A stretch of 64,000 nucleotides of DNA, from positions 62,001-126,000 of the forward strand of contig JACPUC010000019.1 in NCBI GenBank assembly GCA_016192455.1, in the 5' to 3' direction. The notes under the pieces were generated by a model. The model saw only the letters and a program-made list of their open reading frames with translations. It did no database searches and was not told where the DNA came from. The translations under genes and the position numbers were made by a program. This document shows positions 1,423 through 12,135 of the stretch, piece by piece (position 1 is the first letter of the stretch; each line of letters starts with the position of its first letter). This DNA is from Candidatus Tectimicrobiota bacterium. GTDB taxonomy: Bacteria > JACPUC01.

Positions 1423-3057
1423 TTAGTGCATATGCCCATGATGGCCATGGCCGCCCTTCTTCTCCTCCTCTTCCTCCTCGGGCTTGTCGGTGATGAGCGC
1501 CTCGGTCGTCAGCATCACCCCGGCGATGCTCGCCGCGTTCTGCAACGCCGTTCGCACCACTTTCGTCGGATCGATGATGCCCCAGTCCATCAAGTCGCCG
1601 AACCGATCCAGTTGCGCGTCGTAGCCGTAGGAGGCGGAGGCATTCGCCTGCACCTGCTGCAGCACAATGCTCCCCTCCTTGCCGGCGTTGTTGGCAATCT
1701 GCTTCAGCGGCTCGGCGAGGGCCTGGCGGACAATGGCGAGGCCAAGCTGCTGGTCACCTTGCAGCTTCTCCTGGGCCATGGCGGCGGCCGCCCGCACGAG
1801 CGCCACGCCGCCGCCGGGCACGATGCCCTCCTCAACGGCGGCGCGGGTGGCATGCAGCGCATCTTCCACCCTGGCTTTCTTCTCTTTCATCTCCGCCTCG
1901 GTCGCCGCGCCTACCTTGATCACGGCAACCCCGCCCACGATCTTGGCAAGTCGCTCCTGCAACTTCTCGCGGTCATAGTCCGAGGTCGTCTCCTCGATCT
2001 GCGCGCGGACCTGCTTGACGCGGCCCTCGATGTCCTTCTGCGATCCAGCCCCCTCGATGATCGTGGTATTGTCCTTGTCGATCTGGATACGCTTGCACCG
2101 CCCAAGGTCGTCCAGGGTGATGTTCTCGAGCTTGATGCCGAGGTCTTCCGAAAGGACGCGACCTTTCGTCAGGATGGCGATATCCTCAAGCATCGCCTTG
2201 CGCCGGTCGCCATACCCTGGCGCCTTCACGGCGACGCAACTGAGGGTGCCGCGGAGCTTGTTCACCACCAGCGTCGCCAGCGCCTCCCCCTCGACATCCT
2301 CGGCCACGATGAGCAGCGGCCGAGCGCTCCTGGCGATCTGCTCGAGCAAGGGGAGGAGATCGCGCATGGAGCTGATCTTCTTCTCATGCAGGAGGATGTA
2401 GGCGTTCTCCAGCGTCACCTCCATGCGCTGCGGGTCGGTAACGAAGTAGGGCGACAGGTAACCGCGGTCGAACTGCATCCCCTCGACCACTTCCAGCTCG
2501 GTGTGCAGGGTCTTGCCCTCCTCCACCGTGATGACGCCGTCCTTCCCCACCTTCTCCATCGCCTCGGCGATCAAATCGCCAATGGTTTGATCGTTGTTGG
2601 CGGAGATGGTTCCTACCTGGGCGATTTGGGTCTTGGACTGGGTCCCCTTGCTGAGCTTTTTGAGCTGCGCAATCGCCAGCTCCACTCCCCGCTCGATGCC
2701 GCGCTTGATCTCCATGGGGTTGTGACCGGCGGCGACACCCTTGATCCCCTCCCGGTAGATGGTGTGCGCCAGGACGGTGGCGGTGGTGGTGCCGTCGCCG
2801 GCGACATCGCTGGTCTTGCTGGCAACCTCGCGCACCATGCGGGCGCCCATGTTCTCGAACGGATCGACAAGCTCGATCTCCTTGGCCACGGTCACCCCGT
2901 CCTTCGTCGACGCCGGGCCGCCGAACTTCTTCTCGATCACCACGTTACGTCCCCGCGGCCCCAGGGTTACGGTAACGGCCTTCGCCAGCGTCTCTACACC
3001 CTTGAGAATTTTGTGTCGCGCATCGTCGCGATACAGGAGCTGCTTTGCAGGCATCAT
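1423..3057 (-). CDS. groL: Chaperonin GroEL with acidic/His-rich C-terminal tail
   Basis: AKQLLY N-terminus, [27 protein letters not shown]; tail [18 protein letters not shown] replaces the usual GGM repeats. Confidence 0.98.
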
Positions 3058-3089
3058 CGTACCTTTCTTGTTGGCCCTCCGGGCAGGCG

Positions 3090-3383
3090 TTAGACGTTCG
3101 CGACGATGCCCAGGACATCGTCCTCCCGCATGATCAGGTACTCCTCACCATCGAGACGCACCTCAGTCCCCGCATACTTCCCGAACAGCACCCGGTCGCC
3201 GGCCTTCAGCTCGAGTGCCCTGACGGTTCCATTCTCGAGGATGCGTCCGTCGCCCACCGCGATCACATGCCCCTCTTGGGGCCGTTCCTTCGCCGTATCC
3301 GGGATGATGATGTCCCCGTGGCGCACCTCTTCTTCTTCAACACGCTGCACCAAAACGCGATCATGCAACGGTTTCACGTTCAT
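3090..3383 (-). CDS. groS: Co-chaperonin GroES
   Basis: [12 protein letters not shown]...[14 protein letters not shown]...[11 protein letters not shown]; start moved to ATG 3383, which has an AGGAAAGGAG RBS. Confidence 0.97.
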
Positions 3384-3444
3384 TGACAACTCCTTTCCTG
3401 AGCCTAGCAAGGGGTAGGGGAAGGCGATCCTCTCCTCTCTCAGG

Positions 3445-4787: not shown

Positions 4788-5385
4788 TGCGCAAGGCGGA
4801 ACATCGTGCCCGCGGCCCTCGCGCGGCGTGGGTCGCGAGGCCAGCCATGGATCGCGGCAGGCCGGCGGCCGCGTGGCGATCATCACCCCCTCGGGTGGCC
4901 TGGGGGTGGAGCTGACCGACCTCTATGAAGCCGCCGGCCTGCAGGTGCCGATGCTCTCGCCCGCGCTGCAAGCTGAGATCGCCGCCGTCCTTCCCCCCTT
5001 CGGATCGCCTGCCAACCCCATCGACGTCACCCCCGTCTGGGCGCAGTTTGCCGCCCTCTACCGGCGCATCATCGAGCTGCTCTGCCGCAGCGATGAGGTG
5101 GACATCATCGTGCCGTGCATCGTCCTGAGCGCCACGCGCATGCCCGAGCTGATCGAGGCCGTGCGCGACACCGTGCTGCGCTGCCAGCGTGAGGAAGGCC
5201 GCTCCAAGCCAGTGGTCATCGCCTGGGGCTCGCTGCGGGAGTACCAGCACCATCAGGCCATCCTGGAGGAGGCGGAAATTCCCTGCTATCCCTGGAGCCA
5301 GGCCACAGCCGCCGCCATCGCCGGCATGGTGCGGTACGCGCGGGCGCGCCGACGCGCCTTGCTCCAAGCCGCTTCGCCGGCGTGA
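4771..5385 (+). CDS. Stand-alone or truncated acyl-CoA synthetase (NDP-forming) flavodoxin-like domain
   Basis: RVAIITPSGGLGVELTD...NPIDVT matches the second half of AcdA-type CoA ligases; no CoA-binding or ATP-grasp domain; true start uncertain. Confidence 0.6.
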   Translation: MAGCVNAQGGTSCPRPSRGVGREASHGSRQAGGRVAIITPSGGLGVELTDLYEAAGLQVPMLSPALQAEIAAVLPPFGSPANPIDVTPVWAQFAALYRRIIELLCRSDEVDIIVPCIVLSATRMPELIEAVRDTVLRCQREEGRSKPVVIAWGSLREYQHHQAILEEAEIPCYPWSQATAAAIAGMVRYARARRRALLQAASPA

Positions 5386-5436
5386 TTCCCGTCGCCCAGC
5401 CGATCTCCCGCGCCTGGGGGCTGGGGGAGAGAAGCC

Positions 5437-5465
5437 TTGCCGAACGGGTCACCGTCCACTATACT
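5437..5465 (+). promoter_or_regulatory. Sigma-70-type promoter of the leader ORF/metal-uptake operon
   Basis: TTGCCG-N17-TATACT. Confidence 0.6.
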
Positions 5466-5511
5466 TGCGGCATTCCTTGCGGCGTAAGGACATCAACGGG
5501 ACTCAGCGGCG

Positions 5512-5817
5512 ATGCACCTCATTCACCCGCGCCTCTGGTCGGCAGCGCTTGCACTCCTCCTCACCCTGTCGCTGGGTGTGTTGGGACCGCTCGCCTCCGG
5601 ACATCTCCACGCCGCACCGGCGCCGAGTCTCTATAGCGTGCAGTGCCCCATCTACGCCTCCACGCGAGTCCCCCCGACAGCGCGTCACTCGCAGCCGCCG
5701 GCCGTCGTCTTGCCTGCCATCACCGCGCACGAGCCGGCTCTCCGACATACCCCTCCCAGCCCGTCGCCATCGCACCGCCTGTCGCAGCGCGCCCCTCCCG
5801 CGTTTTCGAGCATCTGA
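5512..5817 (+). CDS. DUF2946/CruR-like upstream leader peptide with C-terminal RAPP motif
   Basis: N-terminal hydrophobic signal/TM segment, GHLH and QCPIY, Pro/Ser/His-rich linker, ends SQRAPPAFSSI; first ORF after a promoter, ahead of metal-uptake genes. Confidence 0.7.
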   Translation: MHLIHPRLWSAALALLLTLSLGVLGPLASGHLHAAPAPSLYSVQCPIYASTRVPPTARHSQPPAVVLPAITAHEPALRHTPPSPSPSHRLSQRAPPAFSSI

Positions 5818-5952
5818 AGGCGAGCGTCCACCGCCATGCCCGAGCCCGCCTTTGCCTTGTCATGCAAGGCGCCTGCTCGGCGGCGGCAGGGCGCGCTATG
5901 CTCCGACGCGCGGGCGCCGGCGCGGCGCCATTCCGGGAGAGGAGCGCAACGG

Positions 5953-7218
5953 ATGCGTCAAGGGTCATTGCTTGCCATTCTCCTCTTGCTCACTAGCCTG
6001 TGGAGCGTCGCCTCGAGAGCTAACGCCCAGAGCGCCATGCAGGCAGATATCGAGGCGCTCAAGCGGCTCGTAGGAGAGCTGCAGAGCAAGGTTGAGGCGC
6101 AGCAACGGAAGATTGAAGCGCTGGAGGCGAAGCAAGAGGCCGCGGCGATTGAAACGGAGTTGAAGCCCACACCCCCGCCGCCCCCCTCAGCGCCCGCGAC
6201 GTTGGCCCCAGGAAGGCGGCAGCCGGCAGCCGCGGGCGGCCTCCTGGCGAGAATCCCCCAGATCGGCGTGGTGGGTGACATTGTTTATACCGGCACGGAA
6301 CGCTCCGAGGACGCGGACGGCAACGACCGCTTCCGCTTCCGCGAGCTCGAGGTGGTGCTGGGCGATTTCGTCGATCCCTACACGAGGTTCGATGCCGCCG
6401 TGGTCTGGTCCGACGGGGAAGAGGTGGAGATCGAGGAAGCCTTCGTGACGCACTTTGGGCTGCCCTATGGCTTGGGAATGCGCCTGGGCAAGTTCCGGCC
6501 GCGCATCGGACGCATCAACCTGAAAGACCTCAACGCCCTCCCCTTCGTGAACGAGCCGCTGGTGATCAGTGAGTACTTTGGCGAGGAAGGCTTCGCCGCC
6601 ACCGGGCTAGAGCTCAGCCGCTTCATCCCAAACCCCTGGGACCTCTTCATGGAGGGGAGCGTCGCCTTCGTCGACGGCGGCAACGATGTGAGCTTCGGCG
6701 GCAACAGCCGACGGCCCATCCTTGTCGGTCATCTGCGCAGCTTCTTCGATTTCTCCGACCGCCTCGGGTTGCAGCTTGCGTTGACCGGCATGCTGGGCAG
6801 CACGGATGTGGACCGCACGATGGAAGCCTTCATCGGCGGAGCCAGCATGTCCTGGCACTACCAGCCGCGGGAGTTCTTGCGCCTCACCTGGCTGACCGAG
6901 GCGTACGGTCAAGACCGGCGCCAGGAAGCCCCGGGGATCGAAGCCAATCCGCTGGGATTCTTCAGCAACCTCGACCTGCGCTTCCACCCGCGCTGGTCCG
7001 TCGGGGCGCGCTACGATCTCGTCGAGCCGCTGGGGCTTGCCCGGCGTGATGGTGACCGGGACCAGGCCATCGCCGGCTACCTCACGTTCCACCAGAGCGA
7101 GTTTGCGCTCTTCCGCTTGCAGCTCCAGCACACCGAGTTCGCCTCCGGCAGAGAGGATGATGCGATCTTCCTGCAAACGCGGGTGCAGATCGGCGTGGAC
7201 CGGCATGCGTTGCAGTAG
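5953..7218 (+). CDS. Outer-membrane beta-barrel porin associated with metal ABC uptake
   Basis: Signal peptide, N-terminal coiled coil, amphipathic beta strands (FRFRELEVVLGDFVDPY, SEFALFRLQ); RBS GGGAGAGGAG before ATG 5953. Confidence 0.75.
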   Translation: MRQGSLLAILLLLTSLWSVASRANAQSAMQADIEALKRLVGELQSKVEAQQRKIEALEAKQEAAAIETELKPTPPPPPSAPATLAPGRRQPAAAGGLLARIPQIGVVGDIVYTGTERSEDADGNDRFRFRELEVVLGDFVDPYTRFDAAVVWSDGEEVEIEEAFVTHFGLPYGLGMRLGKFRPRIGRINLKDLNALPFVNEPLVISEYFGEEGFAATGLELSRFIPNPWDLFMEGSVAFVDGGNDVSFGGNSRRPILVGHLRSFFDFSDRLGLQLALTGMLGSTDVDRTMEAFIGGASMSWHYQPREFLRLTWLTEAYGQDRRQEAPGIEANPLGFFSNLDLRFHPRWSVGARYDLVEPLGLARRDGDRDQAIAGYLTFHQSEFALFRLQLQHTEFASGREDDAIFLQTRVQIGVDRHALQ

Positions 7219-7300
7219 CCCGCGGGGGGACGCCATCGGCCTCCCGCCCGCCAGAGACGGAACAGAGTTCGGCGTCGGGCAGAGGGGTGAGGACAAGGGC

Positions 7301-8251
7301 ATGACAACTCGTCAACAGTGGCGCTTGCGCGCGGCTTGCCTGCTGTGGCTCGGCATCATCGCGGGACTGGCCCTGCTGCCGGCCGCGGCAAGCGCCAAGA
7401 CGCTGCGCGTCGTAGCAACGCACGCCATGTTCGGCGCCCTGGCACGCGAGCTGGGCGAAAACGCCGTCGAGGTTCACGTCATCGTCCCGCCCCAGCGTGA
7501 CATCCACTTCCTGGAACCGCGGCCCAGCGATGTCCTGAAGCTGGCGCGGGCACAGCTCTTCATCCACTCGGGCCTGGACCTGGAGCTCTGGCGCGGCCCC
7601 CTTGTCGAAGCCGCCCGCAACCGCCTCGTCTTCCCCGGCGCCGCCGGCGACTTCGATGCGGCCGTCGGTGTGCCGCTCCTGGATCCCCCAAGCCGCGACG
7701 CCTCGCGCGCGGAAGGGGATGTCCACATCTTCGGCAACCCCCACTACTGGCTCGACCCGGAGAACCTCCGCATCGTCGCCCGCCGCCTGGCGGAAAAACT
7801 GGCCACGCTGTTGCCGGAACGCGCCGCCCAGATCACCGCCACGGCGCAGCGCTTCGATGCGGCGCTGCGGGAGCGCATCGGCGCGTGGCGGGCGCGCTTC
7901 GCCCCTTACGCCGGCCAGGAGATCGTCGCCTACCACAACAGTTGGCCCTATTTGGCGCAGTTCCTGGGGGTGCGCATCACGCTCTTCTTGGAGCCAAAGC
8001 CGGGCATCCCCCCCTCCGGGAAGCACCTCGCCACCATCGTCGGTCTCATGCGCTCGCGCAACCTGAGGGTCATCATCAATGAGCCCCCCTACCCGACGCA
8101 GCCGGCGGAGGTGGTGGCGCAGCGGGTCGGCGGCAGGGTCGTGCTGCTGGCGCAAGTCCCGGGAGCTCTCCCCCAGACCGACACGCCAGTGAGCTTCTTC
8201 GAGGTCCTCGTGGGGCGCCTGGCAACAGCTCTCGGTCAGGGACGAGGCTGA
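7301..8251 (+). CDS. Metal (Zn/Mn) ABC transporter substrate-binding protein, ZnuA/TroA family
   Basis: Signal peptide; DIHFLEPRPSD, GDVHIFGNPHYWLDP, YHNSW, EPKPGIPPS motifs. Confidence 0.9.
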   Translation: MTTRQQWRLRAACLLWLGIIAGLALLPAAASAKTLRVVATHAMFGALARELGENAVEVHVIVPPQRDIHFLEPRPSDVLKLARAQLFIHSGLDLELWRGPLVEAARNRLVFPGAAGDFDAAVGVPLLDPPSRDASRAEGDVHIFGNPHYWLDPENLRIVARRLAEKLATLLPERAAQITATAQRFDAALRERIGAWRARFAPYAGQEIVAYHNSWPYLAQFLGVRITLFLEPKPGIPPSGKHLATIVGLMRSRNLRVIINEPPYPTQPAEVVAQRVGGRVVLLAQVPGALPQTDTPVSFFEVLVGRLATALGQGRG

Positions 8252-8639: not shown

Positions 8640-9374
8640 GTGACGCGGACGCCGCTGATCAGCTTGACGGAGGTGTCGCTCGGCTACAACGGGCAGCCGC
8701 TCCTGCGCGAGATCAGCTTCAGCGTGCTGGTTGGGGAGTTCCTCGCCATCCTGGGGCCGAACGGCGCCGGCAAGACGACGCTGGTGCGCGCCCTGTTGGG
8801 CCAGCTCCGCCCTCTCGGGGGCCGCCTCGAGCGCGCCGCGGTGCAGGGCGAACGCTTGCGGACCGGCTACGTCGCCCAGAGCGCCAGCCTCGACCCGATC
8901 TTCCCGTTCAGCGTCGCCGACATCGTGCTGCAGGGACGCCTGGGGCGCCGCCACGGCCTGCAACGGCTCAGCGCCACCGACCGCGACGAAGCGGCGCGCT
9001 GCCTCGACGAGGTGGGGCTCTCCCACCTCGCCACGATGCCGTTCCGCGACCTCTCCGGCGGCCAAAAACAGCGGCTGCTCATCGCCCGCGCCCTGGCGAC
9101 CCAGCCGCATCTCCTGCTCCTCGACGAACCGACGCGCGGCCTCGACCTCGCCTCGCGTCACGCTATCCTGGACCTCATCGCGACGCTGCACCGCAGGCGA
9201 GGCCTGACGATCGTGCTCATCACCCACGTGCTCGCCGAAGCAACACGGCTCGCCGAACGCGTCGCCCTGGTGCATCACGGCCGCGTCACCTCCGGCGCCA
9301 CCGCCGAGCTCCTGCAGCCTGATCGCCTGGGTCGCCTCTACGACATGGACGTGGAACTTCTCGAGGAGAGCTGA
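8640..9374 (+). CDS. Metal ABC transporter ATP-binding protein (ZnuC-like)
   Basis: GPNGAGKTT, LSGGQKQR, LLLDEPT; operon context. Confidence 0.9.
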   Translation: MTRTPLISLTEVSLGYNGQPLLREISFSVLVGEFLAILGPNGAGKTTLVRALLGQLRPLGGRLERAAVQGERLRTGYVAQSASLDPIFPFSVADIVLQGRLGRRHGLQRLSATDRDEAARCLDEVGLSHLATMPFRDLSGGQKQRLLIARALATQPHLLLLDEPTRGLDLASRHAILDLIATLHRRRGLTIVLITHVLAEATRLAERVALVHHGRVTSGATAELLQPDRLGRLYDMDVELLEES

Positions 9375-9395: not shown

Positions 9396-10205
9396 GTGGA
9401 GAGCCTCTGGAACTTGCCATTCTTCCAAGACGCGTTGACCGCAGGGGTCCTGCTGGCGATCCCCTGTGCCATTCTCAGCGTCTACGTTGTGCTGAACCGG
9501 CTGGTGTTCCTCACCGCAACGCTCGGGCAGTGCGCGGTGGCCGGTTTTGGTTTGGGCTTCCTCATCGGCTGGCAGCCCTCGCTCGTCTCCCTGCTCCTCG
9601 TGCTTGCTGTCGTGCCTGCCTTCCTGCGCGGCGGCTCCGGCGGCACGGCGCCGATGGACAGCGTGCTGGGCATGCTCTTCGTCACGGCTTGGGCCAGCAG
9701 TATCCTGTTTATCGCCGGCAGCGCCGTCGGTCGCGAGGAAGTGGTGAATGCTATTGAAGGGAACGTGCTCACCATCTCCGCCGGGCAGCGCTGGCTTCTG
9801 GCGGCCCTGGCGGTGGGGGTGCTGCTGCTGCACCGCTTCGCCTCGCACGATTTCCTCTTCGTGGCGTTCGACCCGGAGATGGCGGCCAGCCTCGGCTACC
9901 ACGTCCTCCTCTGGCGCCTCTTCCTGTACGGCGCCCTGGGCATGAGCATCGGCATGACGACCAGAATCGGCAGCATCCAGCTTGTCTTTGCCCTACTGGT
10001 TTTCCCCGCCATGGTAGCGTTGCGCTTGAGCCACGACCTGCGGCGCATCTTCATGCTGGCGGTTGGCGCCGCGGTGGCAATGAGCCTCCTCGGTGTCGTG
10101 CTGTCGTTCACGCTCGACGTGCCCACAGCCTCCACGATCGTGGTCCTGCTTGGGCTCCTCTTTTGCGCCTCCTTGGTGGTTCGCCGCTGCCGAGCGCGGC
10201 TTTAG
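9396..10205 (+). CDS. Metal ABC transporter permease (ZnuB-like)
   Basis: Multiple TM segments, FDPEMAASLG loop; operon context. Confidence 0.85.
   Translation: MESLWNLPFFQDALTAGVLLAIPCAILSVYVVLNRLVFLTATLGQCAVAGFGLGFLIGWQPSLVSLLLVLAVVPAFLRGGSGGTAPMDSVLGMLFVTAWASSILFIAGSAVGREEVVNAIEGNVLTISAGQRWLLAALAVGVLLLHRFASHDFLFVAFDPEMAASLGYHVLLWRLFLYGALGMSIGMTTRIGSIQLVFALLVFPAMVALRLSHDLRRIFMLAVGAAVAMSLLGVVLSFTLDVPTASTIVVLLGLLFCASLVVRRCRARL

Positions 10206-12061: not shown

Positions 12062-12135
<74 letters not shown>

Follow-up and report, generated by a model that had tools for sequence, protein, structure and literature searches.

Leaders ending in the arrest motif RAPP stand ahead of many metal genes (PMC12992588). 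In Bordetella pertussis, CruR (Bp2923, DUF2946/PF11162) precedes bfrG, the gene for a copper TonB receptor (PMC9426467), its arrest was shown in PMC12992588, and it has been shown to act through Rho. In Rhodobacter capsulatus, CutF precedes cutO (PMC9973294; bioRxiv 10.1101/2025.02.05.636593); this exported nascent sensor carries a CxxxC motif about 45 residues from a Pro-rich stall site, when it stalls, a stem that occludes the Shine-Dalgarno (SD) sequence of the next gene is melted, and copper prolongs the stall, which turns on a detoxifying oxidase. ApdA, ApdP and SecM (PMC10951233) share a RAPP or RAGP core with proline in the P and A sites and monitor protein export, and SecM controls the next gene through its ribosome-binding site (RBS). 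Here we analyzed a 64,000-nucleotide (nt) stretch of DNA from Candidatus Tectimicrobiota bacterium (contig JACPUC010000019.1, positions 62,001 to 126,000; called the window), in which an open reading frame (ORF) of 101 codons precedes genes for a porin and a ZnuABC-like importer. An initial annotation had proposed that this ORF is a RAPP-type arrest leader of the CruR/CutF kind, and this is supported by its anatomy, which is conserved at 109 of 128 homologous porin loci. We lean towards reading the ORF as a cis-acting, metal-sensing leader of the CruR/CutF type that rations a porin-ZnuA-ZnuC-ZnuB zinc uptake operon. By analogy, the leader probably works as CruR and CutF do, with a known mechanism serving a new target class and a new metal. 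The elements of the leader region are the following.

5437-5465, + strand: sigma-70-type promoter candidate (-35 TTGCCG, 17 nt, -10 TATACT), without a visible Zur-type box
5512-5817, + strand: leader ORF, 101 amino acids, with an N-terminal helix, HxH, a single Cys, a 47-residue linker, RAPP and a 5-residue tail
5527-5595, + strand: putative signal or transmembrane segment, leader residues 6-28 (AlphaFold helix 6-28, hydropathy rule)
5602-5610, + strand: HxH (His31, His33), candidate metal ligands in columns nearly invariant in an alignment of 105 leaders
5644-5655, + strand: CPIY, with Cys45 at the first-Cys position of the family, 48 residues ahead of the Arg, and Tyr in place of the second Cys of CxxC
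5668-5787, + strand: C-rich 3' part of the leader (59 C and 29 G per 120 nt), candidate Rho loading site
5751-5757, + strand: second anti-SD-like stretch, inside this C-rich part
5788-5799, + strand: RAPP codons CGC GCC CCT CCC (residues 93-96); in the expected stall Pro95 (5794-5796) would occupy the P site and Pro96 the A site

The promoter and the ORF with its membrane segment, HxH, Cys and RAPP are all present where the initial annotation had placed them. The promoter candidate is the sole promoter-like match in 4800-6400 (0.1 +/- 0.3 in shuffles) and lies 47 nt ahead of the leader start, and RAPP occupies residues 93-96 of 101, five residues ahead of the stop. The likeness to CruR extends to the first position in an uptake operon (promoter-like site upstream), a putative N-terminal export signal (helix 6-28), the Cys motif, the distance of 44-45 residues to a RAPP near the end, the long GC-rich spacer, and the same expected polarity (stall on, metal off). 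The gap from Cys motif to RAPP is 45 residues in CruR (PMC9426467), and the gap from Tyr48 to Arg93 in the window leader is 44, in line with CruR-like spacing. The stall register at RAP/P is taken from PMC10951233 and PMC12992588. The leader also fits the broad rules of PMC9973294 for CutF-like ORFs (fewer than 150 amino acids, a signal peptide, PP at most 15 residues from the end, a same-strand neighbour within 1000 nt, and a His/Cys site), having 101 amino acids, PP at 95-96, a 135-nt spacer and H31/H33/C45. Unlike CruR, it has an extra HxH, a single Cys, no CxxC and no PF11162 match, and its target is a 16-strand porin with a ZnuA-type ATP-binding cassette (ABC) importer instead of a copper TonB receptor. 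It differs from CutF in that the target is an importer, so that the opposite polarity is expected, and in that the last codons of the leader itself contain the anti-SD arm; the export monitors ApdA, ApdP and SecM are without its His/Cys sensor.

The initial annotation had likened the leader to DUF2946 proteins, but a profile search gave no PF11162 match at E up to 10. Pfam and NCBIfam held no family match, and a set of 5.8 billion proteins yielded 64 candidates, none at E up to 1. Because the leader had no profile or sequence match of its own, we collected loci by following the porin. Genome searches and one metagenome scan (best 80 of 178) gave 191 loci with 157 distinct porins, and after removal of 20 without a start call and 9 with less than 450 nt upstream, 128 could be scored for a same-strand ORF just upstream of the porin with a hydrophobic segment and a RAPP-like end. 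Such a leader was found at 109 of the 128 loci (58 genome loci, including the window, and 51 metagenome loci), compared with 1/128 on the opposite strand and 0/104 downstream. Inspection of the 19 remaining loci showed a variant leader in 9, in most cases with an APKxSPP-like end. From named genomes a scan recovered only 2 porin loci, neither with a start call nor a visible leader. The ends of the 109 leaders were RAPP (81), RSPP (14), RGPP (9), HAPP (2), RDPP (2) and HSPP (1). The motif Arg is encoded by all six of its codons across the leaders and selection therefore acts on the peptide. The distance from CxxC to the Arg is 44-45 residues in 62 of the 82 leaders that have CxxC. Leader, motifs and spacing are kept ahead of this porin in many lineages.

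These results bear on the notion that the ORF and its pairing with the porin RBS are chance products of a genome with 68% GC. The leader is without a family or sequence match, 145 stop-to-stop frames of the genome end in R[AG]PP, and the region taken as a whole is no more stable in folding than its shuffled versions (z 0.04); yet a hydrophobic segment lies at the right distance in only 1 of these 145 frames, which is the window leader, and the same anatomy precedes the same porin at 108 other loci, which already refutes chance for the ORF. We regard this explanation as hardly credible. That the ORF is a real arrest leader is highly likely in our judgement, and it very probably controls the operon in cis.

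A family profile (A3, of which the leader is itself a member) matches the leader at E 1.2e-6 as the only good match in its genome. Among 105 aligned leaders, 39 match PF11162 with E values of 0.1 or less, the best being 1.2e-5, and one cluster of ESM Atlas neighbours is 54% DUF2946; by these comparisons the leader is related to DUF2946 proteins, yet is not a member by profile. Acidobacteriota, Rokubacteria, Omnitrophota and Nitrospirota are the groups most often represented among the ESM Atlas neighbours of the leader and the porin. Relatives of the source genome in the comparison set share its domain only, and the genome seems to stand alone there at the level of phylum; the samples that contain it are groundwater metagenomes. 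Contigs of close relatives from runs X7 and X9 span the leader at about 90-93% identity, with listed indels that keep the frame.

The initial annotation had also suggested that HxH and a single Cys (CPIY) replace the usual CxxC and so point to a metal other than copper. HxH is present in 94 of the 109 leaders and CxxC in 82, with both in 71 and HxH without CxxC in 23, which does not agree with HxH as a substitute; the window copy has instead lost its second Cys. Strict CxxC is absent from 27 of the 109, nearly all of which retain one Cys at the same position, and CP[IVA]Y occupies the first-Cys position in seven other leaders (L051, L096, L107, L114, L116, L119, L122). On these alignments single-Cys CPIY is a recurrent minority variant, and therefore cannot by itself point to another metal.

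Several further features of the leaders were observed. Eight same-porin leaders (L033, L035, L040, L142, L160, L169, L173, L181) end in (L/V/T/I)APKxSPP or VPKTSPP, often with a longer His/Cys domain, and that of L178 ends in GQSPP; the APKxSPP-type end is possibly a second arrest motif. The linker between Cys motif and RAPP is strongly hydrophobic, resembling a second membrane segment, in low-GC genomes (L019, L037, L050, L134, L144, L145) and Pro/Ala-rich in high-GC genomes, its length being kept and its sequence not. Near-consensus -35 and -10 boxes 6-11 nt ahead of the leader start codon gave 22 matches among the 109 loci (e.g. L063, L082, L093, L100, L126, L131, L188), which suggests a constitutive promoter and an mRNA that begins at or near the start codon (leaderless mRNA); the mRNA of the window ORF, in contrast, would have a 5' leader of about 40 nt and a weak SD sequence.

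The operon downstream of the leader is as the initial annotation described, a porin gene followed by ZnuABC-like genes, with an additional lipoprotein gene between ZnuA and the ATPase.

5953-7218, + strand: porin, predicted 16-strand barrel
7301-8251, + strand: ZnuA-family binding protein; three His are conserved, and no other protein of the genome (88% complete) matches PF01297
8266-8625, + strand: small BamE-like lipoprotein (under the Pfam cut-off)
8640-9374, + strand: ABC ATPase, AztA/ZnuC/MntA type
9396-10205, + strand: ABC-3 permease, ZnuB/AztB type

The gene after the porin is of the ZnuA type in 94 of the 98 leader loci with enough sequence. His 72, 151 and 215 of the window protein (numbered from 7292) align with His of ZnuA from Synechocystis (1pq4), its best solved relative, and we take these residues of 1pq4 to be zinc ligands. 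All three are retained in 91 of 91 fully covered relatives, with His, not Glu, at the third site, where Mn-type cluster A-I binding proteins have Glu. The BamE-like lipoprotein gene is not recurrent among the neighbours of other loci. In the porin model a coiled coil precedes 16 strands and there is no plug; the folds that it resembles best are those of trimeric porins and OprP. TonB-dependent receptors have a 22-strand barrel with a plug domain. The model suggests that a Vibrio homologue bearing the label TonB-dependent receptor is a 16-strand porin, as this label does not fit the model of the window protein. An alternative porin start at 5836 was rejected; a protein begun there would lack a signal peptide, and the gene call of a relative with 94% identity starts at the residue that corresponds to 5953.

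The case for zinc comes from this target operon, not from the single-Cys motif. The homologue of Vibrio campbellii (L192, NZ_CP050465.1) matches the porin profile at E 2.4e-66 and is followed by binding-protein and permease homologues in the same order, with two Zur-type boxes (modelled on Caulobacter Zur sites) within 70 nt of the porin start and no RAPP leader. NZ_CP050465.1 is a 2.06-Mb replicon filed as a plasmid, with the size of a second chromosome. In both V. campbellii and V. parahaemolyticus an omr-znuA2-znuB2 cluster belongs to the Zur regulon (PMC9817125), and in V. parahaemolyticus zinc deficiency induces the three genes 1034-, 543- and 283-fold (Table 1 of the same paper); the V. 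campbellii locus is equated with this cluster by gene order and species, not by V. parahaemolyticus sequence. The Vibrio cluster thus resembles the window operon in its homologous porin, binding protein and permease, in their order and in being made of zinc-starvation genes, and differs in its Zur control at the promoter. Because the Vibrio homologue carries Zur-type boxes and matches a cluster induced by zinc starvation, zinc is the likeliest signal, and we consider it rather likely to be the main one. The suggestion of the initial annotation that another metal than copper is sensed therefore holds as far as the target is concerned, with zinc the leading candidate, and does not hold for HxH/CPIY as the pointer.

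Zur-type boxes are not in excess at the leader loci (2/105 versus 1.9 in shuffles), a weak result as the boxes differ between phyla. They are not enriched at the leaderless loci either (1/19 within two mismatches), and an alternation between leader and Zur therefore rests on the single Vibrio locus. The source genome has one Fur-family gene. A Fur/Zur-family gene adjoins the operon at four loci (L019, L122, L032, L170), two with and two without a strict leader call.

The leader might respond to another signal, such as Co, Ni, Mn or Cu, or to the capacity for Sec export or disulfide formation. Copper is the signal for its characterized relatives, and relatives with a His-only site stand first before Ni/Co genes (PMC9973294); AztC, MntC and ZnuA are each matched in NCBIfam far under the cut-off; and Sec/YidC is also monitored by RAPP leaders. 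These points are set against the three-His binding protein with its invariant third His and the zinc regulation of the Vibrio homologue. Moreover, whereas the target of CruR is copper-related, that of the window leader is a zinc-type importer, and no copper, nickel or cobalt cluster recurs among the neighbours of the porin loci except for a possible Ni/Co transporter cluster at 4 of them (unannotated and read by eye). A pure export monitor would need no conserved HxH and Cys at a fixed spacing. We therefore judge a signal other than zinc improbable.

A second system linked to zinc may exist in cultured bacteria. In Vibrionaceae, ZrgD (DUF2607), a His/Cys protein of about 95 amino acids ending in RAPP, is the first gene of the zinc-regulated zrg operon and stands ahead of zrgA (DUF2796), the gene of a zinc-binding protein (PMC12992588 source data; PMC9817125). 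Its target is ZrgA-ABC, it is under Zur control too, and there is no porin. By its sequence ZrgD is probably a second zinc-linked arrest leader; the portions of the literature examined do not treat it as one. In the portions available, the top-30 list of PMC12992588 names no zinc system as such and includes DUF2796, i.e. ZrgA, and its source data contain leader-target pairs similar to that of the window, which are not discussed there. We found no paper on a zinc-sensing arrest leader or on a leader-porin-ZnuA unit in a search that left subscription journals largely outside.

CruR acts through Rho, whereas the leader family analyzed here shows pairing of an anti-SD segment with the porin RBS. 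The first Pro codon of the motif is CCT in 52 of 109 leaders, compared with 18.3 +/- 3.7 expected from the Pro usage of each porin, and alike in the genome and metagenome sets; enrichment is much lower at the second Pro codon (25/109). CCT-CC yields CCUCC in the mRNA. Partition-function folding of 108 loci (one was omitted for length), with chimeras carrying GC-matched foreign sites for comparison, showed that the zone from -3 to +32 relative to the Arg codon pairs better with its own site than with foreign sites in 78/108 (6.5 versus 3.5 pairs), a preference that is absent elsewhere along the leader. Pairing peaks 16-20 nt downstream of the first base of the Arg codon, where the front of a ribosome holding the first Pro in its P site would lie. 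Masking the footprint of a ribosome stalled at RAPP lowers the cost of opening the porin start region by 3.0 kcal/mol (chimeras, 1.1; mask placed upstream, -0.3). SD masking is likely to be part of the switch across the family. The initial annotation had taken the RAPP codons themselves as the partner of the RBS; this applies in the window, but in most relatives the partner lies just 3' of RAPP. At the window locus the elements involved are as follows.

5789-5800, + strand: candidate anti-SD arm
5818-5952, + strand: GC-rich spacer of 135 nt; a long predicted hairpin (about 5801-5899) draws both arms together, and 5900-5911 competes for 5944-5956
5934-5947, + strand: porin ribosome-binding region (GGGAG 5935-5939, AGGAG 5940-5944), with the start codon at 5953

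The pairing of 5789-5800 with 5934-5947 can be read from the sequence as the initial annotation described it, with 12 base pairs and two single bulges (bulged A), and lies within the minimum-energy fold of 5760-5970, the region singled out for folding in that annotation. With a duplex energy of -25.5 kcal/mol, it is the best among all 24-mers of the leader and spacer, a value attained by 0.5% of 12,780 24-mers of the window and, among 3,000 synonymous recodings, by 0.37%, and it ranks in the top 2% when compared with 50 foreign pairings. The helix depends on the CCT Pro codon, which is rare locally (8 uses among the 131 Pro codons of six genes in the window). The 12-bp helix exceeds chance. 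At 37 C it keeps at least 9 pairs for 14 of 40 choices of fold boundary. These 14 have their 5' end at 5760 or later, and none of the 20 folds that begin at 5743 or earlier keeps as many, the site being paired there with 5751-5757 or with other partners. In the free folds GGGAG (5935-5939) has pairing probabilities of 0.92-0.99, and GGGAGA (5935-5940) is unpaired in the ribosome-masked fold. A riboswitch was rejected, as an Rfam scan of 5200-6000 gave no match at E up to 1, so that neither leader nor spacer falls in an Rfam family; PMC9426467 notes that Cu and Zn have no known riboswitches. An intrinsic terminator was likewise rejected as the control element.

In the working that we propose, the ribosome would stall at RAP/P while the N-terminal segment of the leader is in the Sec channel. 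HxH and Cys would then be 50-64 residues from the peptidyl transferase centre and outside the tunnel, as has been argued for the 45-residue spacing of CutF. When zinc is scarce the stall would last, the ribosome would cover the anti-SD arm, and the porin operon would be translated and transcribed through. When zinc is bound, local folding would free the chain and the ribosome would finish and leave, after which the C-rich 3' end of the leader could pair with the porin RBS, so that translation would be off and Rho could end the transcript.

Several findings weigh against this interpretation. The loci are related and were selected by porin score, so that the frequencies given above are biased and p values overstated. 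RAPP alone is not always arresting (PMC12992588). The sensor stretch of the window leader has only two His and one Cys, and its AlphaFold model (pTM 0.32) shows no folded or compact metal site. Across the family, the masking gain reaches at least 2 kcal/mol in only 57 of 108 loci, and a 24-nt segment centred on the RAPP codons matches its own site better than foreign sites in 58/109 (p 0.15), which is no clear preference. At the window locus the masked fold buries the porin start codon by pairing of 5900-5911 with 5944-5956, and because of this pairing the opening cost does not fall on masking (10.5 kcal/mol free and 10.8 masked; 11-13 in both states in a second folding run). The proposal of the initial annotation that a stalled ribosome masks the anti-SD segment is thus supported as a trend across the family, while the window locus gives no predicted gain. 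For a transcript with 68% GC, equilibrium folding is a coarse instrument, yet it does not bear out the switch at this locus, and we put the chance that SD masking is part of the switch at the window locus slightly above even.

The lack of net opening in the window folds would also fit a leader that senses the same metal but acts by Rho-dependent termination, as CruR does, with RBS pairing a by-product or minor aid at this locus. Rho is encoded in the source genome, the 135-nt GC-rich spacer resembles the 162 nt of CruR, and the 120 nt ahead of RAPP are C-rich (skew 0.34); in the family, C skew in this region is above synonymous expectation in 84 of 109 leaders (0.20 versus 0.14), which fits a CruR-type Rho site. 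In the window leader, however, the skew equals what its amino acids predict. A Rho site needs no preference for CCT over CCC, such as is seen at the first Pro codon and far less at the second, nor does a Rho model predict the locus-specific matching of leader 3' end and RBS. Rho termination and SD masking can, moreover, act in series. Rho-dependent termination in place of SD masking is, in our view, unlikely, though a serious rival given the window folds.

The same folds, with no switch predicted at the window locus, might mean that the family is a working switch of which the window copy is a degenerate member that has lost its second Cys, senses no metal and leaves the operon at a fixed level. 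This leader keeps just H31, H33 and C45, whereas its CPIY-type relatives have additional His, and copper control by CruR is blunted when both Cys are replaced. The family nevertheless tolerates the loss of strict CxxC, as seen in the 27 leaders described above; the window leader retains RAPP, the spacing and the rare CCT codon; and in the two close relatives the listed indels keep the frame. We consider degeneration very improbable.

Other features of the window lie outside this system. In the X7 and X9 relatives, 7220-7391 (the porin-ZnuA spacer and the ZnuA signal peptide) is swapped for 173 unlike letters between flanks that are about 90% alike. A tRNA gene lies at 12062-12132 (+ strand), and 1423-3417 (- strand) is presumably the groES-groEL operon.

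Bacterial zinc uptake is usually explained by the repressor Zur. Taken in its broadest form, our proposal is that a nascent chain with HxH/CxxC reads periplasmic zinc at the Sec exit and gates a zinc porin and ZnuABC via an anti-SD segment in its last codons, replacing the role that Zur has in Vibrio, that such leaders are widespread and undescribed, and that APKxSPP is a new arrest sequence; we advance this whole statement only tentatively, at slightly less than even chance. The kind of mechanism is already known, and relatives of the H2C2 type offer a stronger test than the window copy, which has one Cys and folds ambiguously. The analysis provides a testable function for an unannotated family of 100-amino-acid genes, and its more than 100 natural variants (H2C2, H2C1, APKxSPP ends) would allow ligand set and spacing to be related to metal choice. 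If the proposal is correct, the CruR/CutF switch would extend from copper to zinc, the leader would be the first post-transcriptional zinc sensor of such a kind, and many mostly uncultured lineages would control a zinc porin and importer by a nascent-peptide sensor instead of Zur.

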